This document shows positions 1,355-63,533 of a stretch of DNA of 64,000 nucleotides, piece after piece. Each line of letters begins with the position of its first letter. Position 1 is the stretch's first letter. The stretch comes from Planctomicrobium piriforme (GTDB lineage Bacteria > Planctomycetota > Planctomycetia > Pirellulales > UBA1268). Where the stretch lies: the NCBI GenBank assembly GCA_945871035.1, contig CAMBUD010000003.1:25238-89237 (forward strand), read 5' to 3'. A program made the position numbers and the translations under genes. The notes under the pieces were generated by a model, which was not told where the DNA came from, did not search any database, and saw only the letters and a program-made list of their open reading frames with translations.

Positions 1355-1371
1355 AAAAGGAGAAAAAGATT

Positions 1372-3015: not shown

Positions 3016-4380
<1,365 letters not shown>

Positions 4381-5919: not shown

Positions 5920-6078
5920 GGCATACTACGATTGTGTTGGATCCTATTCGTTCGCATGAGGCAACGCTTGCTTCCGTTGCATTTCATGACACAGTATAGA
6001 CAAGACCGCCCACCTGACAGCCGCGTGTAAACGCATCCCTAGCCCACCTTTTTTCTCATCCCCTCGGCGAACACTCGC

Positions 6079-11546: not shown

Positions 11547-11621
11547 TCCTAGCGGTTTTGGTCGTTGGTGGATAAGATCGACTTATTCACACCGTTGTCC
11601 CTAAAGCAGAAGCATCGCTCC

Positions 11622-13429: not shown

Positions 13430-13472
13430 TCCATCTGGTCGGAACCTTTCAGTGCGCCAACAGCTGGCCGCA

Positions 13473-15551: not shown

Positions 15552-16129
15552 GGTCGCGTCACCTTCCCGGCGACACCGGTGTAGAAGGTCTCCCACTTGA
15601 CGGTAATGGTCCCATTTTTTTCGAGCCGGCATTCCAGGGCATCCATGGCCCGTGGGCTCGGACTCGGCGCGACCATGCTGCCTGCAAATGTAAATTTACT
15701 GTTGTGGCAAGGACAACGAAAACAATTCTCGTCGGCTTCAATCTGCACAAAGCATCCTGCATGCGGACACGTTGCCGAAAGGGCTTGCACCTCAGCGGCA
15801 CCTTGTTGGCGACAGAGGTAAACGGCTCCTATCGGCTCGGCAGCAAAACCAGTCCACGCGTCGATTCGATCCGACACGACAGCAAACTGTCGCGGCACCC
15901 CGTCGTCAGGAACAGAGGTGGTCGTGGTAACGGGCAAAAAAGAAGCAGTTGCCGCCCGCCTGCGCAGCGGATCGAGAAACATCCAAACACCTGCCGCGAG
16001 TGGCGTGAGCGTTGCGAGCCCACCGCAAACAATCGCCGCTGCCTTTGCCAAAAAAGCCCGCCGTTGCCCCGGCTCAGCCTCGGTCGTTGGCAAACGAACA
16101 AGCAGATTTTTTGCGGACTGTTTGCTCAC
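15548..16129 (-). CDS. Rieske [2Fe-2S] protein of the bc complex
   Basis: Tat-like RRAFLAKAAA signal/anchor. Cluster ligand boxes CPHAGC and CPCHNS. GTG start. Confidence 0.88.
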   Translation of the reverse strand: MSKQSAKNLLVRLPTTEAEPGQRRAFLAKAAAIVCGGLATLTPLAAGVWMFLDPLRRRAATASFLPVTTTTSVPDDGVPRQFAVVSDRIDAWTGFAAEPIGAVYLCRQQGAAEVQALSATCPHAGCFVQIEADENCFRCPCHNSKFTFAGSMVAPSPSPRAMDALECRLEKNGTITVKWETFYTGVAGKVTRP

Positions 16130-16171
16130 GTTTAAACATCCTTCTTTTTTCTATCGGACGCTAACAATAGT

Positions 16172-16214
16172 AGGTCTTCGCAATTTGAATAGACCTTTGC
16201 CAAGGGTGGCAAAG
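16172..16214. repeat. two adjacent inverted repeats in the nrnA / Rieske spacer
   Basis: AGGTCT(16172-16177) pairs with AGACCT(16191-16196). CTTTGCCA(16195-16202) pairs with TGGCAAAG(16207-16214), a perfect 8-bp stem with a 4-nt loop. Function is unknown (terminator or operator). Confidence 0.4.
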
Positions 16215-16242
16215 ACGAGAACGCGTGGCGCGATGGGTTCAA

Positions 16243-17262
16243 CTATTTGGCACCAGGCACCGGTACAACCAGTCCGTTCTGCCAGCATTGATCAACCGCG
16301 ACTGCCACCCGTTCGCAGGCTGACTCGAATGGACCGTCCAAAATTGCGCCGGCAGCAGCTTTGTGGCCGCCACCGCCAAAACGGGCTGCCAGTTCGCTGG
16401 CATCAACGTGGCTGCGACTGCGGAAGCTGACCTTAATTCTGCCGTCACTCTGCTCGATCAAGATCACGGCCATTTGCGTTCCCTTGACTGCCAGCGTGAG
16501 GTTGACGAGATCTTCGGTATCGCTGGGAACAGCACCTGTTTCCTTGATATCGCTCGATCGCAGCGAGGAGGTAATGATCTTGCCGTCGTGCGATACTGTC
16601 GCACCGCAGAGCGTGCGGCCAATCAGGTGCAAACGCGCAATCGAATCCTGTTCACAAATCTCGCAATAGATCGCCGGCGGACTGGCATGCGCGTCGACGA
16701 GCCGTGCGGCAATCCGAAATGTCTCAGCGGTTGTCGATGGAAATCGAAACCAGCCAGTGTCGGTGGCAAGCGCCGCAAAGAGCGGCGTGGCGATCGATTC
16801 TGTCAGCGTCACACGCAGTCGCTGGGCGATCTCGGAAACGATTCGGCTGGTCGCTTCAGCGGTTGTGTCCTTAAACCAGCGATCGGACAGATTGTCTTCA
16901 CTCACGTGATGATCGATGACGACGACTTTGTCACGCATTTTTTTAAGCACATCACCCATCGCTCCGAGCTGAGCCCACGCACTTGTATCGAGCACTATGA
17001 CTAGGTCACGGTCGGAAAGATCAGCCGGCTTCACCCCGGTGGCCAAGGATTCAATCTTTCCCTGTGGATCGATCCACTTGAGATTAGGCGGCGTGGCCTG
17101 CGCATTGACAATGCGCACGTGCTTGCCGAGCGACTCAAGGATCGCAGCCATTCCCAGCTCGCTGCCCAAGGCGTCACAGTCGGGCCTCACGTGACTGGTG
17201 AGAACCACCCGCGTGGATTGCTGCAGAATTTCCAGAAGACTTGCCCAATCGAGTCGCATCAC
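16243..17262 (-). CDS. nrnA: DHH/DHHA1 phosphoesterase (NrnA-type oligoribonuclease / pAp phosphatase)
   Basis: HVRPDCDALGS, VLDTS, IDHHVS and the C-terminal GGGGHKAAAGA motif. Confidence 0.8.
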   Translation of the reverse strand: MMRLDWASLLEILQQSTRVVLTSHVRPDCDALGSELGMAAILESLGKHVRIVNAQATPPNLKWIDPQGKIESLATGVKPADLSDRDLVIVLDTSAWAQLGAMGDVLKKMRDKVVVIDHHVSEDNLSDRWFKDTTAEATSRIVSEIAQRLRVTLTESIATPLFAALATDTGWFRFPSTTAETFRIAARLVDAHASPPAIYCEICEQDSIARLHLIGRTLCGATVSHDGKIITSSLRSSDIKETGAVPSDTEDLVNLTLAVKGTQMAVILIEQSDGRIKVSFRSRSHVDASELAARFGGGGHKAAAGAILDGPFESACERVAVAVDQCWQNGLVVPVPGAK

Positions 17263-17268
17263 ACCTCC

Positions 17269-18243
17269 TTAGAAACACTTCGCTGCCACGGCAACCTGTG
17301 CGGCCTGACTGACATCAATGGCCAGCTGCGCTTGCAGTTGGCCCACGCTGGCGAATTTTTGAGTGTCACGCAGCCGCTGAAGGAAGTCAACGTCGATGTT
17401 TTTGTCGTAGAGATTGCCTGAGAATCCTATCAGGTGTACCTCGACTGTAATCGCAGCCTCACCAAAGGAAATGTTTGGGCCGATGTGGACCGCAGCTGGC
17501 CACATTCTGCGCTGATGGGAGGATTGCTGATCGACTACTGCCGCGCAGGCAGCATACACGCCGTGCGCGGGAAGCACTGTTGGAATGGCTGCCAGATTCG
17601 CCGTTGGAAAACCGATCGGACCGCCCCGCTTGGCACCCTCGACCACTGTGCCTGTCAATCGGTAGGGCGCTGCGAGCATCTGCCTCGCCTCGCCCACGTG
17701 TCCCGCCCCGATCAGTGCGCGGATCCTGGAGCTCGACACCGGCAGGCCATCCACCATGACCGGCGCAACTTTTTCAAGCTGCAATCCGTCGGCGTTGCAG
17801 AGTAACTGCAGCAAATGGATGTCGCCACTGCGATTGGCTCCAAACCGAAAATCAAAACCTTCCACAAGCGCCGCAGCCTGGAGCCTAACGCGCAGAATGT
17901 CGGCATAGAACGCGCCAGCTTCAAGCTCAATGAGGTGTTTTTCGGTCGGCTGCACAAGCACCGCGTCAACGCCTAGGGCCGCTAGAAGTTCTGTTCGTCT
18001 AGCGGACGTCGTGAGTTGGATGGGAGCCGCATGCGGTCGCACGATCGTGGCTGGATGCGGATCAAACGTAAACACAACCGCCGGCAAATCCTGCTGCTGC
18101 GCAACAGCCAACAGCCTGCCAATAATTTCAGCGTGGCCTAAATGAACACCGTCAAAGTTGCCAACCGTTAACGCGCAGGCTGATGCATGGGGCGTCCAGC
18201 GGTTGGTCAGATTGAATACGGCAGGATAGGGAATATGGTGCAC
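17269..18243 (-). CDS. ribF: bifunctional riboflavin kinase / FMN adenylyltransferase
   Basis: GNFDGVHLGHAEII, GFDFRFGANRSGD and GAKRGGPIGFPTANL. Confidence 0.9.
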   Translation of the reverse strand: MHHIPYPAVFNLTNRWTPHASACALTVGNFDGVHLGHAEIIGRLLAVAQQQDLPAVVFTFDPHPATIVRPHAAPIQLTTSARRTELLAALGVDAVLVQPTEKHLIELEAGAFYADILRVRLQAAALVEGFDFRFGANRSGDIHLLQLLCNADGLQLEKVAPVMVDGLPVSSSRIRALIGAGHVGEARQMLAAPYRLTGTVVEGAKRGGPIGFPTANLAAIPTVLPAHGVYAACAAVVDQQSSHQRRMWPAAVHIGPNISFGEAAITVEVHLIGFSGNLYDKNIDVDFLQRLRDTQKFASVGQLQAQLAIDVSQAAQVAVAAKCF

Positions 18244-18374
18244 GGCACGGGCTGTCAGATAGACCAGTGGGGAAAATCGTCGTCAAAAGTGTAGTCTACC
18301 GGTTGGCGGAAATTTCCACCGCTAAAAAGCCGACAGAAGCCCGATTGTTTCCAGTCACAGGACACCCTGAGCCA

Positions 18375-18665
18375 ATGCCAAAATTTATTATTGAGCGCGA
18401 GATCTCTGGAGCAGGATCGCTGTCCCCTGCGCAGCTGCAGGCAATCTCGCAGCAGTCGTGCAGCGTTCTGCGGCAGATGGGCTCGGAGATCCAGTGGGTT
18501 CAAAGCTACGTTACCGCTGACAAAATCTACTGCGTGTACGTTGCCCCCAATGCGAAAACCGTGCGCGAACACGCCCAACAGGGTGGGTTTCCGGCAAATG
18601 TTGTTTCACGGGTGCATTCGGTCATTGATCCAACTACGGCAGAGGAGCCTGGCGTCGCAGAATAG
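18375..18665 (+). CDS. DUF4242 family small protein
   Basis: MPKFIIEREISGAGSLSPAQLQAISQQS...WVQSYVTADKIYCVYVAPN matches the DUF4242 pattern as I remember it. Start taken at the internal ATG. Confidence 0.6.
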   Translation: MPKFIIEREISGAGSLSPAQLQAISQQSCSVLRQMGSEIQWVQSYVTADKIYCVYVAPNAKTVREHAQQGGFPANVVSRVHSVIDPTTAEEPGVAE

Positions 18666-18763
18666 AATTGCGACAATGATCGTTTGCATTGCGGCGATCA
18701 CAACCGTTACATATGTCAGATGTGTTTCTGAGCTTCGGCCTTATTTTTGGGAGAGCTTTTGTG

Positions 18764-19537
18764 ATGCTATTTCTACGGACTGTGCTGGGGTGCGCTGTGC
18801 GGGCATGCTTCTTGCTAGCGTTGTGTGGAGTCGCCATGCCGGCTGTAGCAGCCGATGCGGATGGGTTTGAAACAATCTTCGCTGGCAACGACGGATTGAA
18901 AGGCTGGCATGTCTCAGCCCAAAGCGGGCACAGCAATGCCAGCGGCAAAAAGAGCGGTGGAAAATGGGTAGTTGAAGACGGTGCGATCAGCGGCAGCCAA
19001 GACATTCCAGGCAATGGTGGAATCATTCTCACGGATCGTGAATACGGCGACTTTGAAGTCCGCCTCGAAATGAAGAATGACTTTGGCCCCGACAGTGGTC
19101 TCTTTTTGCGATCGACCGAAGATGGCCGCTGTTATCAGGCCATGATCGACTATCACGCCGATGGAAATTTAATGGGGGTCTATGGCGAAGGCCTCGGTGG
19201 AAATCCGCACCTCAGAAACTTCAGCTTTCTGGACACTGTCGACAAGATCAGAGCCCAAGACGCACCCGTTGCATTGCCGGTCGAGCCGAAGGAATGGCAG
19301 GCTTTCTGGAATCCCTCTGAGTGGAACGAAGTGGGTGCCCGCATCGTGGGCAATCCTCCCACAGTCACAACATTCATCCGTGGAAAGAAATTTATGGAGT
19401 ACACAGACACCCAAAAACGCCTGCCCGATACCGGTCGGATTGGTCTGCAGGTGCACGGAGGCGGCGACTTTACCAAGCAGTTTGTTCGCTATCGAAACAT
19501 TCGCGTAAAGGTTTTGGGGCCTGACGCTGGGAAGTGA
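18764..19537 (+). CDS. secreted DUF1080 (3-keto-disaccharide hydrolase-like) domain protein
   Basis: Signal peptide (LLALCGVAMPAVAA), then FETIFAGNDGLKGWH, WVVEDGAI, YGDFEVRLEMK, SGLFLRS, IGLQVHGGG and the terminal RNIRVK. Confidence 0.75.
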   Translation: MLFLRTVLGCAVRACFLLALCGVAMPAVAADADGFETIFAGNDGLKGWHVSAQSGHSNASGKKSGGKWVVEDGAISGSQDIPGNGGIILTDREYGDFEVRLEMKNDFGPDSGLFLRSTEDGRCYQAMIDYHADGNLMGVYGEGLGGNPHLRNFSFLDTVDKIRAQDAPVALPVEPKEWQAFWNPSEWNEVGARIVGNPPTVTTFIRGKKFMEYTDTQKRLPDTGRIGLQVHGGGDFTKQFVRYRNIRVKVLGPDAGK

Positions 19538-19644
19538 TTGTCTGGTGCAACGCGCTGGCCGCGGCATGATTGGGCAAAGAGAGCAGAAACGAGGAGAATG
19601 GGTCGGGTTGATTGGGACACAAGTCTTGAAGCACAGCAGGCAGG

Positions 19645-21360
19645 ATGCACCCTCAGCGAGTTGGCACAATGACCGCGTTGACTGAAGACAAGCAGATCTA
19701 TCTGTCGGCTGACATGGCCGGCCGCGTAGCCGCCATCGACATTGGCTCCAACAGCGTGCGATTGCTCGTAGCTGAGGCACTGCGTGGCGGGAATTACAGG
19801 ATTCTGGATGAAGAACGCGAGCCCACCCGGCTGGGACGAAGCGTAGCCGCTCACGGACAACTCGACGATGAATCGATGGCTCGAACGCTGACGGCGCTGC
19901 GCACCTTTAAAGAAATCTCGGCGGGCTACCAAGTGACGACCCTGCGTACGATTGCCACTTGCGCCGTGCGCGAAGCGAGAAACGGGCCGGACTTTTGCCG
20001 ACGGGTGCGTGAAGAAATCGGTTTGGAAGTAGAAGTGATCTCGGCCGACCGCGAGGCACGCTTGGCATTTTCCAGCGTGCAGTATGCCTTTGACCTAGCG
20101 GGAAAAAATGTGATCGTTGCTGACATCGGCGGCGGCAGCACCGAAATCGTCTTTGCCACAGGCAACCTTATCGAGTCAATATTTGCCACTCCGCTAGGAG
20201 CCGTTCGGCTCACCGAACAATCGGGGCTGAGTGAGGGAATGTCGCCGGATGAATTGCAGGTTGCGCTGGAAAAAATGGATGACTCTATTGCCGCCTGCCT
20301 TAAAAAACGGACTGCGCGCCCACTTTTTGCGCCACACCTGCTCATCGGTTCCGGCGGCACATTCACGACTTTAGCAGAGTTGGTGATGGCTGCTAAAAAA
20401 CAGACCGGCATCCCGGTCGCCGGCTACAAGGTATCGCATGCTGAGCTGCGACATCTCCTCGACAGGCTCCGCAAGATGCCGCTGCGGTCCAGACGCAGCA
20501 TGTCGGGAATGACCCCCGATCGTGCCGACATCATTATTGCCGGTCTTTCGATTATCGACGGGCTCTTGCAGCGTTTTCGCGTCAATACATTAATGGTCCA
20601 CACGCGCGGCGTTCGCGACGGATTGGTGCGGGAGTTGATCGACAATGCAATCGGTACCAGTGGTGATGATCCTTTGCAGCGCGACAATGCCATCGAACGC
20701 TTGGCGGCGGCCTGTTCCGGTGAACTCGAACATGGCCGGCAAGTCGCTGCACTCGCCGGCCGGATTTTTGAACAACTCCTCGAACCGCTTCATCTTTTAC
20801 CAGGCGATAAACAGTTGCTGGAGTGTGCGTCGCGGCTCCAAGACGTGGGCTACGTTATCAACTACGAGCAGCATCACAAACACAGCTACCATCTGATTCG
20901 TAACAGCCGTCTGCCCGGAATTCGTGCGCACGACCTCGAACTCATCGCTAACGTTGCCCGCTACCACCGCGGTGCACACCCCAAACGCAAGCACGATAAT
21001 TTCCTCCAGCTTGTTGCCGAGGATCAACAGCGCGTGCAGGGTTTAGCGGCCATTCTGCGAGTGGCCGGTGGGCTGGACCGCAGCCGCTCACAGCAGGTGC
21101 GCGATGTGCATGTGCGTGTCGAAGACACTGGGATCACGCTTGAGGTGGTCGCCGAACAGGAACCCCTTGTCGATATCTGGGGAGCCGAACGCCGCATCGA
21201 CCTGTTTGAAAAAGTTTTCAAAACTCGGCTCTCGATACAGTGGGCCTCTCAGTCAACGCTGGCTGCCACGGAAGATCTGCCTCAAAACAGCACGGGTGGT
21301 CGGCGGTCCGGCCAGAAGCCTGACAAAAAAAAGCAGCAAAAAAATCGTGGCGACGGCTGA
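19645..21360 (+). CDS. ppx: Ppx/GppA phosphatase with C-terminal HD domain
   Basis: AAIDIGSNSVRLLVAE, ADIGGGSTE, LIGSGGT and an HD region (HHKHSYHLIRNS). ATG 19669 is an alternative start. The tail is basic (KKKQQKNRG). Confidence 0.85.
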   Translation: MHPQRVGTMTALTEDKQIYLSADMAGRVAAIDIGSNSVRLLVAEALRGGNYRILDEEREPTRLGRSVAAHGQLDDESMARTLTALRTFKEISAGYQVTTLRTIATCAVREARNGPDFCRRVREEIGLEVEVISADREARLAFSSVQYAFDLAGKNVIVADIGGGSTEIVFATGNLIESIFATPLGAVRLTEQSGLSEGMSPDELQVALEKMDDSIAACLKKRTARPLFAPHLLIGSGGTFTTLAELVMAAKKQTGIPVAGYKVSHAELRHLLDRLRKMPLRSRRSMSGMTPDRADIIIAGLSIIDGLLQRFRVNTLMVHTRGVRDGLVRELIDNAIGTSGDDPLQRDNAIERLAAACSGELEHGRQVAALAGRIFEQLLEPLHLLPGDKQLLECASRLQDVGYVINYEQHHKHSYHLIRNSRLPGIRAHDLELIANVARYHRGAHPKRKHDNFLQLVAEDQQRVQGLAAILRVAGGLDRSRSQQVRDVHVRVEDTGITLEVVAEQEPLVDIWGAERRIDLFEKVFKTRLSIQWASQSTLAATEDLPQNSTGGRRSGQKPDKKKQQKNRGDG

Positions 21361-21410
21361 TCTTCTGAAAACCGATCGTGTCCCACACGGTCCTGACAAT
21401 CGCGGAGAAA

Positions 21411-21443
21411 AATAGCCATTCCTCAGGCCGGCTATTAGTTTTT
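21411..21443 (+). terminator. candidate intrinsic terminator after ppx
   Basis: AATAGCC(21411-21417) pairs with GGCTATT(21430-21436), followed by AGTTTTT. Confidence 0.4.
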
Positions 21444-21647
21444 CCTTACTACTGCCTCGCAAAAACTCTCTGCTGAAGGTCTGCTCACGGCCGCCCTACA
21501 ACCCCCAAAAACGATCAGTTCTGCCCGATTTACTTTTTCCGAAGATCCGACCGTGCGGCGGTCGATAATTCCTTCACGCTGAAGTTCTGGATTGTTGATG
21601 AGCGAGTGGTTGAGCTGAAGTCCCCACCCAGAATAGGAGAGAATGCT

Positions 21648-22067
21648 ATGCGGATTGGAATGCCATGTGGGCAAAGTCGTTGGGCTCGACTGTACGCTCG
21701 ACCACTGCTGAAAAAGCTGGTCGCTATCTGCATATTCACGATTGCAGTTGGTTTGATCAGCACCGCCACCACACATGCAGAGGCTGACGACCACGGTCGC
21801 CAGAAGGTCAGTCGTCACGGAGACGCGAAGCCGCTCTCACATGGCACACCGCAGAAACGGGCAGCCTACCAGCCTGGCGCCACGCCCTATCAGACCGAGC
21901 ATGGCCAACGCCCAAAATATTTTGTGCCGCCAACCAACCCGCGCACGCCAACTTGGAAAATGTATGGCACTCCCCCGGGTGCCGTTCCGGGCAACTGGCC
22001 GACTTATGCTCCGCTGGGATTCGGTGGGTATCGCTTCCCAGCTGTGGGCAGTCAGGCTTACCGCTAA
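21648..22067 (+). CDS. hypothetical small secreted Pro/Tyr-rich protein
   Basis: AGGAGA lies 8 nt upstream of the ATG. An N-terminal hydrophobic segment (LVAICIFTIAVGLISTATTHA) is followed by a low-complexity Pro-rich tail. I recognise no family. Confidence 0.45.
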   Translation: MRIGMPCGQSRWARLYARPLLKKLVAICIFTIAVGLISTATTHAEADDHGRQKVSRHGDAKPLSHGTPQKRAAYQPGATPYQTEHGQRPKYFVPPTNPRTPTWKMYGTPPGAVPGNWPTYAPLGFGGYRFPAVGSQAYR

Positions 22068-22135
22068 GTTTCTAGCGGTGTGCTGCTGCCTTGAACCCGG
22101 TCGTCGATGCGGCCTTTCCGGGAAGCCTCAGCGCT

Positions 22136-23188
22136 ATGAAAGACTTATTAGAGGTCACCCCTGCTGGCATGTACTGTGCGCAGGGCGACTTCTACATCGA
22201 TCCCTGGAAAAGCGTGCCGCGAGCGATCATCACGCATGCCCATGCCGACCATGCGAGACCTGGCTGCGATCGCTACCTCTGCGCTTCTCCCGGTAAAATC
22301 GTGCTCCGCACCCGCATCGGTCGTGCAGCTTCTATCGACACTGTGCGTTACGGCGAGACGCTCTGGATCAACGGTGTAAAAATAGTGCTGGCACCGGCTG
22401 GGCACATCCTGGGATCAGCACAGGTGGGACTCGAGCATCAGGGCATGAGGTGGGTGGTAACGGGTGACTACAAAATGCAGACCGATCCGACCTGCGCTGC
22501 CTTTGAACCGCTCGAAGCCGACGTCTTGGTAACGGAGTCGACGTTTGGCCTACCGATCTACCGCTGGCCAGATCCGGAGAAGATTGCCGCTGAAATCAAT
22601 CAGTGGTGGCGTGACAACCAAGCCGCCGGCCGCAGCAGTGTGCTGCTGGCCTATGCGCTGGGCAAGGCGCAGCGACTGGCTGCCATGATCGACCCGACAA
22701 TCGGGCCAATCGTGGCGCATGGCTCAGTGATGAAAATGGTGCGGGCGTACCGTGACAGCGGCGTGCGTCTGCCACCCATCGATGGAGTGCCCCCGCAGGC
22801 TCGCAAAGTCGGTGGCGGCCGTGCGCTCGTCATCGCACCGCCATCAGTGGCAGGCCACCGCTGGCTCAAACTATTTGGCAAAACCAGTCTGGCAATGGTC
22901 TCGGGTTGGATGCTGCTGCCCGCTGCGCACCACAACCGTGTTTTTGAGCGCGGATTTGTCCTCTCCGATCACGCCGATTTTCCTGGTCTACTTTCCGCAA
23001 TCGAGGCCTCGCGGGCAAAGCGGGTGCTCGTGACGCATGGCACAACTGAATCGCTAGCCAAACTGCTGCGAGAACGCGGCCTAGACGCCATGTCCCTGCA
23101 CACGCCATTCACCGGCGCGCTGCCTCCCGATCAATCTGCCGATCTGCTCGAGAAGCTGGCGGGCAGCGATGCAACGCAGGCCGAGTAG
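22136..23188 (+). CDS. ligase-associated DNA damage response exonuclease (MBL / beta-CASP fold)
   Basis: LLEVTPAGMYCAQGDFYIDPW, THAHADHARPG, PAGHILGSAQV, VVTGDYK, ESTFGLPIYRWPDP and a C-terminal VTHG. Confidence 0.75.
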   Translation: MKDLLEVTPAGMYCAQGDFYIDPWKSVPRAIITHAHADHARPGCDRYLCASPGKIVLRTRIGRAASIDTVRYGETLWINGVKIVLAPAGHILGSAQVGLEHQGMRWVVTGDYKMQTDPTCAAFEPLEADVLVTESTFGLPIYRWPDPEKIAAEINQWWRDNQAAGRSSVLLAYALGKAQRLAAMIDPTIGPIVAHGSVMKMVRAYRDSGVRLPPIDGVPPQARKVGGGRALVIAPPSVAGHRWLKLFGKTSLAMVSGWMLLPAAHHNRVFERGFVLSDHADFPGLLSAIEASRAKRVLVTHGTTESLAKLLRERGLDAMSLHTPFTGALPPDQSADLLEKLAGSDATQAE

Positions 23189-23228
23189 AGAGGTTGCCGT
23201 CGCTTTTGAATGCGTTGCATGACGGAGC

Positions 23229-24200
23229 TCAAGCCTCTGTGGCTAAAACCGTCTGAAAAGCCTGCGGCAACGCAGCGATAACATCGGTGGCTGTCATCGA
23301 TCTCTCGGTGTGCACAGCCGCAGCACAATCACCGGCGCGGCCGTGAACCCAGACAGCCATTCTCGCGGCAGCGAAGGGCTGCAAGTGCTGGCCGAGCAGT
23401 GCGGCAGCGATACCCGTTAGCACATCGCCTGTGCCGCCTGTGGCCATGCCGGGATTTCCTGTTTCATTGTGAATCTGCTGCTGCGGATCGACCACAAAAG
23501 TTGCGGGGCCTTTGAGCACGACCACCGCATGGATCGCTCGCGCCATGTCAGCTGCCGCATGCTCGAGCGCATCTGGCCGGAGGTGCTCGGATAAAAAATC
23601 GGTGGGTAACAAGCCAAGCATCTCGCCAACGTGAGGCGTGAGCAGTCGCGGCCCGGCATGCTCGGCGCGCTGGGGGAGATCCATTTGTGACAATCCCCAC
23701 AGTGCGTCGGCATCAAAGACGGCGGGTTGCAAGAGTTCTGCCCACAGATGCTGGACGATCCCGGCAACGGCTGCGGAGCGTCCCATTCCTGGACCAATTG
23801 CCACCGCGTCGGCCAGTCGCACCCGTCCAATGATTTCCGCAATCGCTGAGGTATCGAATGTGCCCTCTGCATTGCTCGGTAGACCACGCGTCAAAAGACA
23901 GGGGTCAAAACTGGCGGCAATCGCAACCACTGCTTGGGGGACAAGCATCTCCACGATACCGGCACCGCTGCGCAGCGCAGCCATTGCCGCTAGGGCCGGC
24001 GCTCCCGCCATACCGGCTGAGCCGCCGATAATGACGACCCGTCCGTAGTCACGTTTACTCGTATCGAGCCTGCGCCGCGGCAGTCGGGGCAAATCGGGCG
24101 GCGGAATGATCGGCGGCAGTTGGCCTGTACTTGCAGAACTCCTCGGCATGACACAATCTCCAAAAATCCGTTGCCCGGTTGCCCACAGTCCGGCTCCCAT
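23229..24200 (-). CDS. nnrD: ADP-dependent NAD(P)H-hydrate dehydratase
   Basis: KRDYGRVVIIGGSAGMAGAPALAAMAALRSGAG, VLKG and GNPGMATGGTGDVLTG. ATG 24149 is an alternative start. Confidence 0.85.
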   Translation of the reverse strand: MGAGLWATGQRIFGDCVMPRSSASTGQLPPIIPPPDLPRLPRRRLDTSKRDYGRVVIIGGSAGMAGAPALAAMAALRSGAGIVEMLVPQAVVAIAASFDPCLLTRGLPSNAEGTFDTSAIAEIIGRVRLADAVAIGPGMGRSAAVAGIVQHLWAELLQPAVFDADALWGLSQMDLPQRAEHAGPRLLTPHVGEMLGLLPTDFLSEHLRPDALEHAAADMARAIHAVVVLKGPATFVVDPQQQIHNETGNPGMATGGTGDVLTGIAAALLGQHLQPFAAARMAVWVHGRAGDCAAAVHTERSMTATDVIAALPQAFQTVLATEA

Positions 24201-57065: not shown

Positions 57066-57293
57066 ATGCAATTTATCGAAATGAGCGGCCGCACATTGAT
57101 GAGCATGCTCGAACCGGACGAGGTTTCGCCCGACGAACTCCAGCAGGCAGGCCTCACCGACACATGCCTAGTGCGCATCAATGAGCAGGGGGATATCGAA
57201 GTGCGTCGCCACGGAACGTGGGACGTGATCGGTGGCCTGCTGGGTAATTTTCCGCCGCGTGCCGAACACGCCAGTGGCCGCACCTGGGCCTGA
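57066..57293 (+). CDS. hypothetical small protein (75 aa)
   Basis: ATG-initiated ORF MQFIEMSGRTLMSMLEPDEVSPDELQQAG. I recognise no motif. Its stop lies inside the first unit of the 15-bp repeat. Confidence 0.35.
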   Translation: MQFIEMSGRTLMSMLEPDEVSPDELQQAGLTDTCLVRINEQGDIEVRRHGTWDVIGGLLGNFPPRAEHASGRTWA

Positions 57294-57358
57294 TAAGTCT
57301 GGGCCTGATAAGTCTGGGCCTGATACACCCAGACCTGATAAACCCGGGCCTCACCGTA
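57284..57358. repeat. five tandem copies of a degenerating 15-bp unit
   Basis: ctgggcctgataagt, ctgggcctgataagt, ctgggcctgatacac, ccagacctgataaac, ccgggcctcaccgta. The units are head to tail, about 250 nt upstream of the FAAL fusion gene. Confidence 0.9.
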
Positions 57359-57610: not shown

Positions 57611-60600
57611 GTGATTCCCAATCCAAACAACGAAGCGTCGTTTGCCGAAACGATCGTGGACCTTCTGAGACAGCGGGCCAGCTACCGGCCCCATGACCGG
57701 GCGTTCACATTCCTCATTGATGGCGAAAACGAAGAACTCAATATCAGCTATGCCGAACTCGATCGAAAAGCCCGCTCGCTCGGTGCCTGGCTGATCGCCT
57801 CGGGCATGGCCGGCAAGCGGGTGCTTCTGCTCTATCCATCAGGGCTCGATTTTATTGCCGCCTTTATGGGCTGCCTCTACGGCGGTGCCATTGCAGTGCC
57901 GGCCTACCCGCCGCGAAAAAATCGGTCGGTCGAGCGGATCGAGGCAATCGCTGCCGATGCCAATGCTTCTGTGGCGCTCACCACTCGCGATGTGCTCGAT
58001 CGGTTCGACGCGTTGCGGGCCACGGCGCCGAGCCTTGAAAAGCTGCTCTGGAAAGTCGACAGTGAATTGGAAAGCGATTGGGCCGATCGCTGGCAGCGAC
58101 CAGATATCAACGGCGATACGCTAGCCTTTCTGCAATACACAAGCGGTTCAACCGGCACGCCCAAGGGGGTGATGCTGTCGCACGAAAACCTGCTCCACAA
58201 CTCGCTCGGAATCATGCAGGCCTTTGAGATCACACGCTCTCAGGCGAGCGTGTTTTGGCTACCGAGTTTCCACGACATGGGCCTGATCGGTGGGATTCTT
58301 GTGCCGCTCTATAGCGGTAAATTTAACGTGCTCATGTCGCCAGTGGCTTTTTTGCAAAAGCCGCTGCGCTGGCTGCAGGCAATCACGAAGTATCGCGCCA
58401 CCATTAGCGGCGGGCCAAACTTCGCCTACGAACTCTGCGTGCGAAAGATCACAACTGAGCAGAAACAGTCGCTCGACTTATCGAGTTGGACGTTGGCCTT
58501 CAACGGCGCGGAGCCCGTGCGACCCGAGACGATCGATGCCTTCTGCGATGCGTTTGCGCCGTACGGCTTCCGTCGTGAGGCCTTTTTCCCCTGCTATGGC
58601 CTCGCCGAAAGCACGCTGCTCGTCACCGGCGGCATGAAGTTTGAGCCACCTGTTGTCCGGACGTTCGATGCAACATCGATTGAAACAGGGACCGTGCTCA
58701 CACGCACGGGATTCGCTCCCAACTCCCGCAGACTCGTGGGCAGTGGTCGTGAACTCGACGGGCAGGACGTGCGCATTGTCGATCCGCAAGCTTGTGAGGC
58801 GTTGCCACCGGGACAGATCGGCGAGATCTGGGTGAGCGGGCCGAGTGTTGCCCAAGGCTATTGGAACCGGCCAGAGTCGAGCGCGGCGACATTTGAGGCC
58901 ATGCTTGCGCAGCCCGATACAAGATCGGCCACACAATCGGTCAAAAAATGGCAGCCCAACCCAGGGCCCTATCTACGCACTGGCGATTTAGGCTTCTTTG
59001 ATAACGGGGAATTATTTGTCACCGGCCGACTCAAGGATTTGATCATTGTCCGCGGTCGCAACCACTACCCACAGGACATTGAGCAGTCCGCCGAGATGGC
59101 CAGTCCAATCGTGCGTGCCGGATCGGTCGCGGCATTTTCCGTCGACATCGATGGGCGCGAACGGGTGGTGGTGGTTGCCGAACTCGAACGCGGCAAGCGC
59201 GAGGCAGGCGAGGTGCTGGCATCGTTCAACGCCATCCGTAAGCAGTTGGCAATCGAGCACGAGATTGCGCTGGAGGCGATTGTGTTGGTGCGGCCTAACA
59301 GCATTGCCAAAACGTCCAGTGGCAAGATTCAGCGACACGCCTGCAAACGGCAATTTTTGGAGGGGACCCTCGAAGTCGTCGAGCAGCATATTGGCTGGAT
59401 GCAGGCAGGTCAGGCCGTGGATGCTGTGCCGACAGATACCGCTGAGCCGACACGAGCTTTGCATCCGCCGGGCGAATTGCCACGACTGGCCAGGCTGCGG
59501 CCCATGGGCGATGCATCGCGGGCCATGCGACCCGACCGCGAGTTACCGCAAGACATCGTGCAGGCCGTGTTTGATCATGTGCGGCAGATCGCTAAGGATC
59601 GCGCGGGGCATCTCACGCTGGACAGCAATATTGTCGAACTCGGTCTCGATTCGCTGGAACGCATGGAGATCGTAGCCAGCCTCGAGGAAACCTTCGGCGG
59701 CCGCTTTCCCGAACAGGTTCTGCCGCAGATTGAAACGTGCCGCGAAGTGACAGAGGCGATTCTCGATCACATGCCCTTGGATGGTCGCCGGCAAGTGGCG
59801 GCGGCCCGCGTGATCGCGGAGATCGACCCCGAGACCTACGACTTCGCAAAGTTCCCCGAGGTGCGCGCGTTGGAACAGAATTTGGCAATGGTGCGCGATG
59901 CGGGGCTAGAGAATCCGTATTTCGGTGTTCACGAAGGACTCACCAACGACCGCACACGCATTGGCGGCCGCGAGATGGTGAGCTGGGCCACCTACAACTA
60001 TCTGGGCATGTCGGGGGAACCAGAAATAACCGCGGCGGCCAAAATCGCCTTGGATATCTATGGCACCAGCGTGTCGGCCAGTCGTTTGGTGTCGGGTGAG
60101 AAGGTGATCCATCAGGAACTCGAACGGGCAATCTCCAGATTCGTCGGCACCGAAGACGCGATTACGTTTGTGGGTGGTCATGCCACCAATGAAACCGTGA
60201 TCGGCCACGTGGTTGGCCCGGGCGACCTCATTCTGCACGACAGCCTGTCGCACAACAGTCTGCTGCAGGGAGCCGTGCTCTCAGGGGCCCGCCGCCGGCC
60301 CTTTCCGCACAACGATTTTGAGGCCGCCGAAAAATTGCTGGCGCAGGTGCGTAGCCAGTATCGCCGTGTGCTGGTTGTCATCGAGGGCATCTACAGCATG
60401 GATGGAGACTACTCAGACCTGCCACGCTTTGTTGCCCTTGCCAAGCGGCATAAATCGCTCTTGATGGTAGATGAGGCACATTCCATTGGCGTGATGGGCG
60501 CTCGGGGCCGTGGCATCGGTGAACACTTTGGCGTGAAACCGGCCGACGTCGATCTGTGGATGGGCACGCTGTCTAAATCGCTGGGTAGCTGCGGCGGTTA

Positions 60601-61081
60601 CATCGCCGGTTCCAAGACGCTCGTGCGCTGGCTCAAGTACACGGTGCCGGGGTTTGTCTACTCTGTTGGTCTGCCACCGGCAGCTGCCGGGGCAGCGTTG
60701 GCCGCCATAAAATTATTGGAAAAACAGCCGGAGCGGGTGGCCAAGCTGCAGGCCAATGCCAAGCTCTTTCTGCAACTGGCCCGCGAGGCTGGCCTCAATA
60801 CGGGGCCATCGGGTGGATCGGGCATTGTGCCGGTGATTCTGGGGAGCTCGATCAACAGTTTGAAATTGTCCCGCGCACTTTTTGTGCGCGGCATTAACGT
60901 GCAGCCCATCCTGTATCCAGCCGTTGAGGAACAGGCTACGCGGCTACGGTTTTTTATCACAGCGCGTCACACCTCCGAGCAGATCCGCCGCACCGTTACC
61001 GCCATGCAGGAGGAGCTATTGAAGATCGATCCGGCCTTCGCACGGCAGCCGGCCCAGAGACTGCCAGCAGCGATGCGATAA
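57611..61081 (+). CDS. tri-domain fusion: fatty acyl-AMP ligase (FAAL) / acyl carrier domain / alpha-oxoamine synthase (AONS/SPT family, PLP-dependent)
   Basis: FAAL: FLQYTSGSTGTPKGVMLSH, GEIWVSGPSVAQGYW, YLRTGDLGF, GRLKDLIIVRGRNHYPQDIE. Carrier: LGLDSLERMEI (Ser codon 59651-59653). AONS: ATYNYLGM, SRLVSGE, GGHATNE, YSMDGD, VDEAHS, and the PLP lysine in GTLSKSLGSCGGY (Lys codon 60575-60577). GTG start. Confidence 0.88.
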   Translation: MIPNPNNEASFAETIVDLLRQRASYRPHDRAFTFLIDGENEELNISYAELDRKARSLGAWLIASGMAGKRVLLLYPSGLDFIAAFMGCLYGGAIAVPAYPPRKNRSVERIEAIAADANASVALTTRDVLDRFDALRATAPSLEKLLWKVDSELESDWADRWQRPDINGDTLAFLQYTSGSTGTPKGVMLSHENLLHNSLGIMQAFEITRSQASVFWLPSFHDMGLIGGILVPLYSGKFNVLMSPVAFLQKPLRWLQAITKYRATISGGPNFAYELCVRKITTEQKQSLDLSSWTLAFNGAEPVRPETIDAFCDAFAPYGFRREAFFPCYGLAESTLLVTGGMKFEPPVVRTFDATSIETGTVLTRTGFAPNSRRLVGSGRELDGQDVRIVDPQACEALPPGQIGEIWVSGPSVAQGYWNRPESSAATFEAMLAQPDTRSATQSVKKWQPNPGPYLRTGDLGFFDNGELFVTGRLKDLIIVRGRNHYPQDIEQSAEMASPIVRAGSVAAFSVDIDGRERVVVVAELERGKREAGEVLASFNAIRKQLAIEHEIALEAIVLVRPNSIAKTSSGKIQRHACKRQFLEGTLEVVEQHIGWMQAGQAVDAVPTDTAEPTRALHPPGELPRLARLRPMGDASRAMRPDRELPQDIVQAVFDHVRQIAKDRAGHLTLDSNIVELGLDSLERMEIVASLEETFGGRFPEQVLPQIETCREVTEAILDHMPLDGRRQVAAARVIAEIDPETYDFAKFPEVRALEQNLAMVRDAGLENPYFGVHEGLTNDRTRIGGREMVSWATYNYLGMSGEPEITAAAKIALDIYGTSVSASRLVSGEKVIHQELERAISRFVGTEDAITFVGGHATNETVIGHVVGPGDLILHDSLSHNSLLQGAVLSGARRRPFPHNDFEAAEKLLAQVRSQYRRVLVVIEGIYSMDGDYSDLPRFVALAKRHKSLLMVDEAHSIGVMGARGRGIGEHFGVKPADVDLWMGTLSKSLGSCGGYIAGSKTLVRWLKYTVPGFVYSVGLPPAAAGAALAAIKLLEKQPERVAKLQANAKLFLQLAREAGLNTGPSGGSGIVPVILGSSINSLKLSRALFVRGINVQPILYPAVEEQATRLRFFITARHTSEQIRRTVTAMQEELLKIDPAFARQPAQRLPAAMR

Positions 61082-61150
61082 GTGGCAGTACGGTGGCTCT
61101 GATTGCGAAGCCGCTACTCAGAGCCGGCCGCTGGGCTTATAACGGGAGTC

Positions 61151-61639
61151 ATGCCCCTAGCCCCGATTGAAACCACCAGCCACCGGCTCGTTCTGCCGGC
61201 CGATGCCAACCACCACGGCACGCTCTACGCCGGGAGCCTGCTGCGGTATGCGCTGGAAACGGCGTATGCAGCGGGCTGCCGAAGCACTGGACCGGGGGCC
61301 AACCTCATGCTCCGCCGCGTGGTCAATCTGGAGTGCCGACGCAGTGTGCCGGTGGGATCGCTTGTAGAGATTCGCGGTGCTGTGATCCACGTGCGGCAGT
61401 GCTACCTCGTGGTGGGCGTGGTGGGCATGCCACTGGCGGGCCACACGCTGCCGTGGATGGACGGCCTGCTGGGGTTTGTGCAAGTGGATACTGCCGGGCT
61501 GCCGGTGGAACTGCCGGGGGAGATTCAAACCGTTGGCCAGGCACCCCTCTGGCAGCCGCTGCTCTCGCGACACGAAAAGCTCGCCCAAAACAGAGGCGCC
61601 ACGGCCGACTGGATCGATGCCGGCTTTGATCGGGAGTGA
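61151..61639 (+). CDS. hotdog-fold acyl-CoA/acyl-ACP thioesterase
   Basis: LVLPADANHHGTLYAGSLLRYALETAYA resembles the YciA/Acot-type hotdog thioesterase N-terminus. Same strand, about 70 nt after the fusion gene. Confidence 0.65.
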   Translation: MPLAPIETTSHRLVLPADANHHGTLYAGSLLRYALETAYAAGCRSTGPGANLMLRRVVNLECRRSVPVGSLVEIRGAVIHVRQCYLVVGVVGMPLAGHTLPWMDGLLGFVQVDTAGLPVELPGEIQTVGQAPLWQPLLSRHEKLAQNRGATADWIDAGFDRE

Positions 61640-61670: not shown

Positions 61671-63533
61671 TTAATATTTCACTTCGATGCCGAAGTCGAT
61701 GCCGTTGGTAAAGATGTACTCGTTACCGCCTTCCACAGGGGCAATGCTGTTGTAGACAGGGTTTGGTCGTTCCGTAGCAGGCCGACCGTCTGCTATCCAC
61801 TTGGCCACTGGAACAGTCCTTTTCACTTCCCATGGATTAAGGTTAGCGGTCGGGGGATTCGTAGCCGGGACTGGTGGTTGGTAGGCGTATTCTGTCGCTC
61901 TTTCCTTCGATCTGTATCCAGTGTTAGAAGATGCTCGGGTGATGCCGGCCATCCACATACCCGTGTAGCCAAGGTTCAGGCTGATGGCCTGGCTGACCCG
62001 AAACTGAGTGCTAAATCGCCATTCACCGATCGGCGAGAAGACAAACTCGTGTTCGGCAGAGTTAGTTGTATTGCTCTGGCCGACGCCGTACAGCTGGAGA
62101 AAGAGCGGCGGGCCACTCACTGTAACAGGAGTGTCGTTAAAGCCTTGATTGGAACTCGTGTTAGCCGTTTGAAACGTCGAACGGATGTAGTCGGCCCCCA
62201 GACTCTCGGGAAAATTCGCGCCCCTGAAGAGGCTGTTTTGCCAGTTGAATGCCGGCGTGAATTTGAGTTGGCTTGTGAACGTCCAGCGGCCTTTTTGCGA
62301 CTCCATTAAGATCGCAAACTCTGGCCCCACCATGTTGTTGGTGGTGTAGCTTTCCCAAGCACCGGTCTGCAGGGGGCTCCCGCGTCCTTTTCCTGTCAGC
62401 GTGTCGACACCCGAAATGGCAAAGAAATCTCCCGCCGAGGAGGATGTCTCTGCCAAGGCGGTATCTCCATTGATTGTGCCTGTCACGCCGCCGGTTGTGC
62501 CGCCAGTTGCGCCTGCTGTCGCGCCACCGGTTGTCGCGCCGCCGGTTGCGCCTGCGGTTGCGGTTCCGGTCGTAAATCCACCCGTCGTGCCACCCGTCGT
62601 GCCACCGGCTGTCGTGCCACCGGTTGTCGTGCCACCGGCTGTCGTGCCACCGGCAGTCGTGCCACCGCCGTAGCCAGCGGTATTAAACGCATACTGGTTG
62701 CTTTCATAGGCGATGTTGTAGCGATCCTCAAACTGCACGAATCGCGGGCCGAGCGAAAACTTTACGTTCGAACGGCTCCCCCGGCCGCCAATTTCGCGGC
62801 GGATGAGCGAGGTCACAGCCGCACTTTGAATCCGCGTGGTGTTCATCTGCACCATTTTTTGTGCAATCAGATGATCTGGCGGTGGGCTGGTGGAAATGAT
62901 GGTCGTACTGTTGAGGGCATTTCCTCCACCGACAAGCCCCCCTCCCTCTGGTGTTTGGCCGCTTTGGGTGAATGTCTGAGTGGGAGAAGAGGCCGCAAAC
63001 TCATTGATTGTTTGGAAGCTCTGCGGCTGCTCGCCAGTATCAAAGTAACTCAATAAGATGCCACGATTGTCGTAAATCCATCCCCCTTCGTACCGATTGC
63101 CCCATGTCATATCCGTGCGCAGCCAACTGGTATTCAGATCCAGACTCAGCACGTCGGTGCCAAATATAAACAGTCCGCTAGCGGGTTGCCCGGCGGCAAT
63201 CATGTCGTTGTTGAGTTGCACGATAGTCTGGGGTGAAATGGGCTGAACCGGAATCAGATAACCGCCAAGGCGTGTTTCTGCCGTGCCCACGGTTTTGGGA
63301 ACCGAGATGCCCCAGTACAGCCGGTCGTAGTTAAAAAAGAATCCCTCGCTCGGCTCTGGATAGATTTCGTAGTCCTGCATATCTGGCGGCGCAAAGAGCT
63401 GAAAGTCGTAGAAGTCCTGATCCGGAAGCATCGGCAGCCAATCGGCGGCACGCGTTGCCAAAGACGTCGCCAAGACGCCTGTGGCAAGGAGGATCAATTT
63501 CAAAAAACGCTGCAAACTCTGATTCGTAGCCAT
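61671..63533 (-). CDS. secreted beta-barrel outer-membrane protein, BBP7-like, with an internal Gly/Thr-rich insert
   Basis: Signal peptide (LKLILLATGVLATSLATRAADW), alternating beta-strand-like segments, and a C-terminal GIDFGIEVKY ending in an aromatic residue. About 65 aa are made almost entirely of G, T and A. Confidence 0.6.
   Translation of the reverse strand: MATNQSLQRFLKLILLATGVLATSLATRAADWLPMLPDQDFYDFQLFAPPDMQDYEIYPEPSEGFFFNYDRLYWGISVPKTVGTAETRLGGYLIPVQPISPQTIVQLNNDMIAAGQPASGLFIFGTDVLSLDLNTSWLRTDMTWGNRYEGGWIYDNRGILLSYFDTGEQPQSFQTINEFAASSPTQTFTQSGQTPEGGGLVGGGNALNSTTIISTSPPPDHLIAQKMVQMNTTRIQSAAVTSLIRREIGGRGSRSNVKFSLGPRFVQFEDRYNIAYESNQYAFNTAGYGGGTTAGGTTAGGTTTGGTTAGGTTGGTTGGFTTGTATAGATGGATTGGATAGATGGTTGGVTGTINGDTALAETSSSAGDFFAISGVDTLTGKGRGSPLQTGAWESYTTNNMVGPEFAILMESQKGRWTFTSQLKFTPAFNWQNSLFRGANFPESLGADYIRSTFQTANTSSNQGFNDTPVTVSGPPLFLQLYGVGQSNTTNSAEHEFVFSPIGEWRFSTQFRVSQAISLNLGYTGMWMAGITRASSNTGYRSKERATEYAYQPPVPATNPPTANLNPWEVKRTVPVAKWIADGRPATERPNPVYNSIAPVEGGNEYIFTNGIDFGIEVKY
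62584..62670. repeat. near-perfect tandem 15-bp coding repeat inside the barrel-protein gene
   Basis: gtcgtgccaccc (12 nt), then gtcgtgccaccggct, gtcgtgccaccggtt, gtcgtgccaccggct, gtcgtgccaccggca, gtcgtgccaccgccg. On the minus strand these encode the GGTTA/GGTT units. Confidence 0.9.

Follow-up and report, generated by a model that had tools for sequence, protein, structure and literature searches.

In Caulobacter-type bacterial sphingolipid synthesis, initiation depends on separate genes for an acyl-ACP (acyl carrier protein) synthetase, an ACP, and a serine palmitoyltransferase (Spt), the latter being a pyridoxal phosphate (PLP)-dependent alpha-oxoamine synthase (AONS). The pathway is cited in PMC11334938. 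Enzymes of this family also act at the end of assembly lines: in SxtA (saxitoxin), RedL and PigH/RedN (prodiginines), and Fum8 (fumonisin), a terminal AONS off-loads a carrier-tethered chain onto an amino acid (Arg, Gly, Ser, or Ala), the chains being short or built by polyketide synthases (PKSs) and the genes lying in secondary-metabolite clusters. Here, we analyze a stretch of 64,000 nucleotides (nt) of planctomycete DNA (hereafter the window; contig CAMBUD010000003.1 of Planctomicrobium piriforme assembly GCA_945871035.1, positions 25,238 to 89,237), in which a single gene encodes a predicted fatty acyl-AMP ligase (FAAL), a carrier domain, and an AONS domain on one polypeptide. We propose that this fusion is probably a self-contained long-chain 2-amino-3-ketone synthase, whose product would be a constitutive base of a membrane or envelope lipid. 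Amino-ketones of this kind are the molecules from which sphingoid-like amino-alcohol lipid bases derive.

The layout has been catalogued before. A bioinformatic census by Milano et al (2013; PMC3870968) lists A-CP-AONS proteins (named 'A-CP-PLP2') for Blastopirellula marina (A3ZWL3), Microscilla marina (A1ZVW4), and Synechococcus PCC 7002 (B1XHP8), with AMP-binding, carrier, and Aminotran_1_2 domains arranged exactly as in the window and with one of the proteins coming from a Pirellulales planctomycete. Its PLP domain was modelled on Spt with serine, while specificity, cluster type, and product are all entered as '?'; being a census only, the study includes no phylogenetic link to RkpG, no neighborhood analysis, and no thioesterase. 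Table 2 of the same paper also covers the AONS layouts of Streptomyces assembly lines. A previous annotation of the window made without database searches (the sequence-only reading) had considered the product possibly new for Planctomycetota; given the 2013 entry for Blastopirellula marina, that novelty does not extend to the architecture, which was already known, if product-less, and will not surprise a specialist. In the literature searched, we found no described FAAL-AONS enzyme, and a 2025 review of FAALs mentions neither AONS nor PLP nor sphingolipids. The natural fusion BioWF (PMC9544090) also joins an ATP-dependent acid-activating enzyme to an AONS in one polypeptide, but BioW, which bears no relation to FAALs, forms a CoA thioester with no carrier domain involved, and the AONS half of the fusion is a BioF. 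The new elements of the present analysis are the assignment of the AONS domain to an RkpG/PKS-linked clade, the partner genes of its relatives, the type and variable presence of a neighboring thioesterase, and a persistent neighbor of the BBP7 family.

Results

Three predicted activities on one conserved polypeptide

The fusion gene (Table 1) was called independently, with the same 1156 codons, on a near-identical contig, and more than 120 protein clusters are 80–100% identical to its product over the full length; thus, the gene is real and strongly conserved. Named clusters with at least 80% identity come from metagenome-assembled genomes (MAGs) of Planctomycetia or Pirellulales. Cultured carriers include Blastopirellula marina and Rhodopirellula sallentina SM41 (L027). 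Pfam annotation divides the protein into an AMP-binding domain (residues 20–418, E = 1.7e-68), an AMP-dom_DIP2-like domain corresponding to the C-terminal subdomain of FAAL/DIP2 type (residues 476–591), a PP-binding carrier domain (residues 656–717, E = 7.8e-9), and an Aminotran_1_2 domain (residues 788–1131, E = 1.5e-49, 169.6 bits against a gathering cut-off of 19.7). The FAAL motifs YTSGSTGTPKGV (residues 176–187) and GRLKDLIIVRGRNHYPQDIE (residues 472–491) are present, as are the carrier motif LGLDSLE (residues 677–683, with Ser681 inside it) and the AONS motifs YNYLG (795–799), VDEAHS (953–958), and GTLSKS (985–990, with the PLP lysine Lys989). In agreement with the sequence-only reading, one open reading frame (ORF) hence joins FAAL, carrier, and AONS, with all the motifs quoted there. 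These domains and motifs likewise uphold, as a prediction, the enzymology it put forward: loading of the in-cis carrier by the FAAL, followed by condensation of the bound chain with an amino acid on the AONS domain to yield a 2-amino-3-ketone.

Motif conservation was scored over 29 fused homologues with 37–100% identity. Both the carrier serine and the PLP lysine are invariant in this set, as is the D-S dipeptide of LGLDSLE as a whole. Loss of either residue in orthologues, which the sequence-only reading had named as grounds for rejecting its proposal, is therefore not seen. In the AONS domain, His881, Asp954, His957, Lys989, and Arg1113 align with His159, Asp231, His234, Lys265, and Arg390 of the S. 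paucimobilis Spt, and the catalytic set that they represent (lysine, stacking histidine, aspartate and histidine of the D-x-x-H motif, carboxylate-binding arginine) is kept in 27–29 of the 29 homologues. The domain can thus be assigned with good reason to the AONS family of fold-type I PLP enzymes, with an apparently intact catalytic set.

The activating domain gives its highest NCBIfam scores with FAAL models (PRK05850, 466 bits; FadD32, 436; PRK12476, 433) and lower ones with the acyl-CoA ligase model PRK06187 (190) and an amino-acid adenylation model (163), although its score stays under the curated cut-offs for whole FAAL proteins (466 vs 775). The best solved structures are all FAALs as well: 7r7e (598 bits), the Legionella FAAL 3kxw (470), and FadD32 and mycobacterial FAALs, with 7r7e being the FAAL domain of a PKS from Picosynechococcus PCC 7002 (2025 FAAL review). 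The A3 P-loop, A5, A7, the A8 hinge, and the A10 lysine are all present and conserved, and the carrier domain with the conserved Ser681 is fused 65 residues downstream. By these comparisons, FAALs are closer relatives of the activating domain than either acyl-CoA ligases or domains that adenylate amino acids. The PCC 7002 protein that holds the 7r7e domain is presumably the olefin synthase, in which it would act as a loader of long-chain acids.

For the AONS domain, no curated NCBIfam equivalog cut-off is reached: scores and cut-offs are 344 and 426 for bioF (TIGR00858), 299 and 460 for Kbl, 239 and 339 for ALAS, and 143 and 428 for the CqsA-type autoinducer synthase. Among solved structures, Thermus AOS/KBL scores highest (230 bits), followed by Arabidopsis LCB2a (225), S. 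multivorum Spt (218), human SPTLC2 (215), E. coli Kbl (213), and E. coli BioF (164), with CqsA as the most distant (70). A serine follows both the catalytic histidine and the PLP lysine in the window domain, similar to Spt and LCB2a, whereas BioF, Kbl, and HemA have alanine or glycine; the two active-site-adjacent serines give a weak hint towards serine as the substrate.

The AONS domain groups with RkpG and PKS-linked enzymes

In a neighbor-joining (NJ) tree of AONS sequences (364 columns, Kimura distances, 200 bootstraps), the FAAL-fused and PKS-linked AONS domains, including RkpG and the window domain, form one clade with 86% bootstrap support. BioF, Kbl, Thermus AOS, HemA, and the S. paucimobilis and S. 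multivorum Spts, the two bacterial Spts sampled, are all placed outside it. The firm placement inside BioF that would have told against the sequence-only reading is thus not observed. Consistently, the window domain is 49–68% identical to members of the clade vs 29–37% to annotated BioF, Kbl, and HemA proteins. Relatives at 49–57% identity were also found by tblastn in annotated plasmid and chromid records.

The clade is large. A HMMER search over 1.84 billion representatives returned 4991 proteins at E <= 1e-30, and the 150 best are 50–68% identical to the window AONS. In 136 of these 150, the AONS is the C-terminal domain. Their architectures comprise PKS+AONS (82), FAAL+PKS+AONS (8), and FAAL+AONS (18, of which 14 are 1000–1300 aa long), the other 42 having other or shorter N-termini. 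We infer that the window AONS belongs to a large clade of assembly-line-terminating domains of RkpG type, linked to PKSs or FAALs, and that FAAL-ACP-AONS would be the minimal form of this clade.

The single eukaryotic Spt in the tree, Arabidopsis LCB2a, is the sister of the PKS/FAAL-linked clade with 99% NJ bootstrap support. The reciprocal BLAST score of LCB2a is 220 bits with the window domain and 162–206 with the other families. Since these margins are small and the sampling is thin, the sister relationship to eukaryotic LCB2 is tentative. A standalone AONS encoded on a Bacteroides xylanisolvens plasmid (positions 4926–6161 of the contig L096), beside a gene with a MAC/perforin domain, groups with LCB2a and the carrier-linked clade at 83.5% and not with the S. 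multivorum and S. paucimobilis Spts; it occurs on conjugative Bacteroides/Phocaeicola plasmids.

FAAL-ACP-AONS fusions whose AONS is of a different lineage are found in a Bacteroidetes MAG (L031, positions 8261–13835) and in Limnothrix (L032, positions 9949–15985), which indicates that the fusion arose more than once. Their AONS domains are 32–34% identical to the window domain and are placed near bacterial Spt with weak support. A short-chain dehydrogenase/reductase (SDR) gene adjoins the fusion in Limnothrix and lies one gene away in the Bacteroidetes MAG, and the Limnothrix contig also carries a second FAAL, a reductase/FAD protein, and a GT1 glycosyltransferase. A paper on a Nostoc punctiforme 'Spt', which we had considered as counter-evidence, was set aside, as it concerns a standalone BioF-like protein outside the clade.

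Table 1. Features of the window (positions counted from its first letter) and gene contexts of selected relatives of its AONS domain.
Feature	Position	Strand	Details
FAAL-carrier-AONS gene, whole	57611..61081	+	1156 aa, GTG start; from ORF list with Pfam/NCBIfam domains
Fatty acyl-AMP ligase domain	57668..59383	+	residues ~20-591; AMP-binding core and C-terminal subdomain; A3/A5/A7/A8/A10 motifs
Phosphopantetheine carrier domain	59576..59761	+	residues 656-717; attachment Ser681, codon 59651-59653
PLP-dependent alpha-oxoamine synthase domain	59972..61003	+	residues 788-1131; Lys989, codon 60575-60577
Predicted hotdog YciA/ACOT-type acyl-CoA thioesterase	61151..61639	+	162 aa; gene call on near-identical contig
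BBP7-family putative outer-membrane beta-barrel protein	61671..63533	-	620 aa; signal peptide; Gly/Thr-rich repeat; convergent with the fusion/thioesterase pair
Relative, Pseudomonas plasmid			AONS after type I PKS; SDR and capsule genes
Relative, S. meliloti rkp-1 region			48.7% identity; PKS, AONS, SDR
Relative, Microbulbifer			PKS, AONS, SDR, and capsule genes
Relative, Caballeronia			PKS, AONS, and polysaccharide-export genes; no adjacent SDR
Relative, Planktothrix			AONS C-terminal in PKS; flanking GT39 genes
Relative, Streptomyces			KS-AT-ACP-AONS protein; MMPL and LCP genes beside it
Relative, Bacillus plasmid			cluster of glycosyltransferase (GT), ACP-AONS, methyltransferase, ABC, KS, and phosphopantetheinyl transferase (PPTase) genes

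Keto-reductases and glycolipid genes accompany related enzymes

Several members of the clade lie in informative gene contexts (Table 1). The three S. meliloti genes we take to be those of RkpA (PKS), RkpG (AONS), and RkpH (SDR). In Nostoc minutum NIES-26 (L022), the same three-domain fusion as in the window is followed by an SDR gene and then by LtrA and ABC transporter genes, and the best solved relative of the SDR is the 3-ketodihydrosphingosine reductase TSC10 (8jat, 115 bits; next match 100). Dapis and another cyanobacterium have a split FAAL/ACP-AONS pair with an SDR and a sulfotransferase. The fullest set is that of Moorena producens 3L (L077, positions 561–13421): a TSC10-like SDR that is 66% identical to the Nostoc one, an ACP-AONS protein (57% identity to the window domain), two FAALs, a B12/radical-SAM enzyme, an Asp/Asn-hydroxylase-family protein, and a GT2 glycosyltransferase with a further match to GT21 (Pfam PF13506). 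We take GT21 to be the family of ceramide glucosyltransferases. From its gene content, the Moorena locus seems to be a complete, undescribed glycosphingolipid-like cluster; a cerebroside has been reported from Moorena producens (PMC8895605).

An SDR gene adjoins the AONS gene in the S. meliloti, Pseudomonas, Microbulbifer, Nostoc, Dapis, and Moorena loci, and none does so in the window or in the other planctomycete loci. The two cyanobacterial loci from Moorena and Nostoc resemble the planctomycete one in that a same-clade AONS (57–59% identity) would be fed by a FAAL and a carrier, but the planctomycete locus has neither the TSC10-like reductase of both nor the hydroxylase-family, radical-SAM, second FAAL, and GT2/GT21 genes of Moorena or the LtrA and ABC genes of Nostoc. 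By analogy, the contexts of the relatives support a sequence from amino-ketone to amino alcohol to decorated lipid for the clade, which may extend to the planctomycete enzyme.

In Desulfobulbaceae (L020, L021, and L023, ~13400–23400), the fusion lies beside a pair of ABC transporter genes, a gene for an unannotated protein of 240–280 aa, and a PKS- or polyunsaturated fatty acid (PUFA)-synthase-like megasynthase gene (~2000–2270 aa, KS-AT-ACP-KR-DH), with a radical-SAM/SPASM protein in L021 and L023. Judging by the composition of this block, that lineage may make a more elaborate lipid.

Comparison with described systems

To the sequence-only reading, the fusion had looked like a Caulobacter-type trio joined into one protein. 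The two do share a logic, in which a fatty acid is activated, held on a carrier, and condensed with an amino acid by a PLP-dependent AONS to a 3-keto base. They differ in that the AONS of the fusion is placed outside the two bacterial Spts sampled and in the PKS/FAAL-linked, RkpG-type clade, that its FAAL is of PKS type, with the cyanobacterial PKS loader 7r7e as its closest match, and that no bCerS- or CerR-like genes lie nearby. Descent from the trio is therefore not borne out, and the fusion appears to be analogous to it.

In the RkpG system, the AONS falls in the same clade, works downstream of a chain held on a carrier, has an SDR gene after it, and is tied genetically to a lipid for envelope polysaccharide export. 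The Burkholderia wcb cluster around the PKS WcbR is homologous to this S. meliloti rkp-1 system. In the Rkp case, however, a large iterative PKS that forms a protein of its own supplies the chain in place of an in-cis FAAL, and the genes are in capsule loci, whereas the window has no nearby SDR or capsule genes. Compared by description with SxtA, RedL, PigH/RedN, and Fum8, the planctomycete carrier would be fed by a bare FAAL, and the gene is conserved, isolated, and core-like.

Proposed route to a long-chain amino-ketone

Family membership, conserved motifs, and the fused carrier together suggest that the FAAL would adenylate a free long-chain fatty acid and pass the acyl group to the phosphopantetheine arm on Ser681. 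The PLP domain would hold an amino acid as an external aldimine on Lys989, with serine as the leading candidate and alanine or glycine as alternatives. Based on the intact catalytic set and established AONS chemistry, a decarboxylative Claisen condensation with the acyl-S-carrier would then release the amino-ketone and regenerate the carrier. A keto-reductase encoded elsewhere could turn the ketone into an amino alcohol, as suggested by the SDR genes that adjoin the AONS gene in relatives. Given that conservation stays above 80% across many planctomycetes of Pirellulales type and that the gene has housekeeping neighbors, the product would most likely be a lipid made constitutively for the membrane or envelope, or else a lipid anchor, rather than a sporadic secondary metabolite.

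Several points weigh against this proposal. No reductase, N-acyltransferase, or glycosyltransferase gene lies within ~10 kb of the fusion, and the 64-kb window has no TSC10-like SDR. The window AONS does not appear to fall inside the characterized bacterial Spt group, and it misses the Spt equivalog cut-offs (SerpalmtaseCFB, 298 vs 640; BetaP, 274 vs 500; AlphaP, 229 vs 670). Its clade is about equally distant from all characterized AONS families (33–36% identity), and the amino-acid substrate cannot be read from the sequence. In the literature searched, we found no chemically defined product for any clade member, and the evidence for sphingoid lipids in Planctomycetes was metagenomic inference, with no report from cultures; a Black Sea study recorded Spt-like proteins in 138 Planctomycetota MAGs, with some of the matches being parts of longer proteins. 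The pathway to a sphingoid-like base that the sequence-only reading had proposed is retained in part: same-clade relatives adjoin TSC10-like 3-keto reductase and glycolipid genes, but neither a reductase nor a ceramide-synthase-like gene lies near the window fusion. A sphingoid base as the product is thus treated here as a hypothesis.

Alternative explanations

Under the first alternative, the product would not be a bulk membrane sphingolipid; it would prime or anchor an envelope glycoconjugate, as proposed for RkpA/RkpG/RkpH and for the WcbR-type systems of Burkholderia. The amino-ketone or amino alcohol would then form the lipid end that a surface polymer is assembled on or exported with. 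This is really a sub-variant of the amino-ketone-synthase explanation, and its strength lies in the relatives: those with genetic evidence are RkpG-type AONS enzymes in capsule loci (S. meliloti, with Pseudomonas, Caballeronia, and Microbulbifer at 49–57% identity), the rkp-1 literature names a 'specific lipid carrier' for K-antigen export, and other clade members adjoin GT39, LCP, LTA (lipoteichoic acid)-synthase, or GT genes. In the planctomycetes themselves, the most persistent neighbor of the fusion is BBP7, a predicted outer-membrane barrel. However, no capsule, Kps-type export, or glycosyltransferase genes lie within ~10 kb, a FAAL takes the place of the PKS in the planctomycete proteins, and the chemistry of the Rkp lipid itself was never defined, the rkp-1 literature speaking of a 'specific lipid carrier' and no more, so the likeness is to an undefined compound. 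We consider a dedicated anchor unlikely on this balance.

A bolder version of the amino-ketone-synthase proposal would make the fusion a self-sufficient serine palmitoyltransferase module that forms 3-ketosphinganine-type bases from free fatty acids. It would then constitute a third independent bacterial route to sphingoid bases, core to the membranes of Pirellulales, and its AONS clade would be the closest prokaryotic relative of LCB2/SPTLC2. This version is doubtful. If true, it would have implications for how sphingolipid synthesis arose in eukaryotes, and the 'lipid carrier' of the Rkp and Wcb systems would be a sphingoid-like base.

A diffusible small molecule, either a signal of CqsA/LqsA type or an amino-ketone that cyclizes or dimerizes to pyrazines, pyrroles, or alkaloids, is quite improbable. 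AONS enzymes do make small molecules elsewhere, as in CqsA and in the assembly lines for prodiginines and saxitoxin; many clade members are embedded in PKS megasynthases, MFS or ABC exporter genes adjoin the AONS gene in some relatives, and the planctomycete fusion has no adjacent reductase. On the other hand, CqsA is the most distant solved relative, far below Kbl, Spt, and Thermus AOS in score, and the autoinducer-synthase model stays well short of its cut-off; the very high conservation and housekeeping neighbors argue for a core function, and the FAAL resembles long-chain loaders.

A biotin enzyme, which would load activated pimelate on the carrier and form 8-amino-7-oxononanoate with its AONS serving as a BioF, is scarcely credible: bioF is the top-scoring NCBIfam AONS model, JGI pipelines name the protein '8-amino-7-oxononanoate synthase', BioWF is a natural precedent, and no second AONS was found in the window, but the bioF score is under its cut-off, E. 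coli BioF scores well below Spt, Kbl, and LCB2a, the domain is placed outside the BioF group in the tree and is much closer in identity to PKS/FAAL-linked AONS domains, the activating domain is a long-chain-type FAAL and not BioW, same-clade relatives pair with keto-reductases and glycolipid genes, and no bioA, bioD, or bioB gene lies near the fusion, whose neighbors are instead those for enolase, riboflavin synthase, rsmA, the hotdog thioesterase, and BBP7.

A hotdog thioesterase is a frequent partner

The gene downstream of the long-chain amino-ketone synthase candidate has two candidate starts, the called one (Table 1) and an alternative TTG at 61103 that gives an ORF of 178 aa (61103..61639); it begins 22–70 nt past the fusion stop codon on the same strand. 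Pfam 4HBT matches the encoded protein below threshold (18.6 bits vs 20.6), and by sequence it matches the acyl-CoA hydrolase 1vpm with E = 1.9e-9. With an AlphaFold2 model (pLDDT 72, pTM 0.71), hexameric acyl-CoA thioesterases lead the Foldseek matches, the top ones being 1vpm, 2eis, NmACH, HI0827, and the C-domain of ACOT7 (TM ~0.6, probability 1.00). Taken together, the sequence and model comparisons point to a hotdog protein of the YciA/ACOT acyl-CoA hydrolase type. Family members are 70–97% identical and carry the names acyl-CoA hydrolase or YciA in JGI sources. Two acidic residues, Asp18 and Glu36 as counted in the 162-aa form, do not vary among 33 members, and their likeness to the Asp44-type residue of YciA was judged by eye.

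On the long contigs that carry it, the hotdog gene always lies 59–74 nt downstream of the fusion. It is missing from four equally close loci (L007, L013, L015, and L016), in which the next gene abuts the fusion directly. A family HMM for divergent copies in distant planctomycete loci found none beyond the eight already detected by tblastn and the near-identical contig L081, and small downstream ORFs in L008 and L009 that we considered as possible copies proved unrelated (WXG100, or no match). The thioesterase is thus a frequent, but not an obligate, partner of the fusion. The sequence-only reading had called it dedicated and suggested a role in editing or release: its hotdog identity holds, but its absence from the four loci speaks against a dedicated enzyme, and it is not needed for off-loading because the AONS condensation itself frees the carrier. 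Most plausibly, it would free fatty acid from acyl-CoA for the FAAL or clear mis-acylated thioesters.

Genomic neighborhood of the fusion

Upstream of the fusion lie genes for a MoxR-like ATPase, a VWA protein, enolase, riboflavin synthase, and rsmA and a small conserved ORF of 75 aa; downstream, the hotdog ORF is followed by the convergent gene for the secreted BBP7-type protein. The 317-nt leader of the fusion contains no riboswitch or other regulatory RNA that rises above chance, all Rfam matches being far below gathering scores. A promoter and terminator scan of the fusion locus gave background levels only, so the case for a fusion/thioesterase operon is made by the 22–70 nt gap and the shared strand.

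The BBP7-type protein has no direct Pfam match, but its homologues carry PF07585 (BBP7). In its middle is a long, length-variable Gly/Thr-rich repeat (GGTTAGGTT...), and its structure model was too poor for a fold search (mean pLDDT 41). Dozens of variants that are 95–100% identical occur across many metagenome samples. The gene still adjoins the fusion in L008, L009, L017, and L030, where synteny with rsmA, ribE, and eno is lost. From this conserved adjacency, the barrel may be a functional neighbor and a link to the envelope; a FadL-like channel for fatty acids is one conceivable role.

The 75-aa ORF (57066–57293, plus strand), which separates rsmA from the fusion, matches neither Pfam nor NCBIfam models and shows 40–80% identity in 11 related loci. 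It travels with rsmA, and because the two are inverted together in L005, it is probably part of the rsmA unit rather than of the lipid gene. Just after it, inside the 317-nt leader, is a perfect tandem repeat of the 15-nt unit CTGGGCCTGATAAGT (2.8 copies, 57284–57325, plus strand). The leader in L081 is 125 nt longer than that in the window, a difference for which the repeat was ruled out as the cause by its copy numbers (2.8 vs 2.7). Three contigs labelled 'Candidatus Kuenenia' in public MAG records (L013, L025, and L028) carry a Pirellulales-type locus with ~80% identity and full synteny and are probably mis-binned or mis-labelled planctomycete contigs.

Discussion

The fusion is among the most conserved large biosynthetic genes of widespread freshwater and marine planctomycetes, and its AONS clade has thousands of representatives, including those of RkpG type; the 'specific lipid carrier' attributed to the latter in capsule export by rhizobia has gone undefined since the 1990s. 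With all three activities on one polypeptide and no PKS, the fusion is the clade member in which the choice of amino acid and the chain length would be easiest to establish. A known function would replace many 'aminotransferase class I/II' annotations, and the product of the fusion would show whether Planctomycetes make sphingoid-type lipids, which have so far been inferred only from metagenomes.

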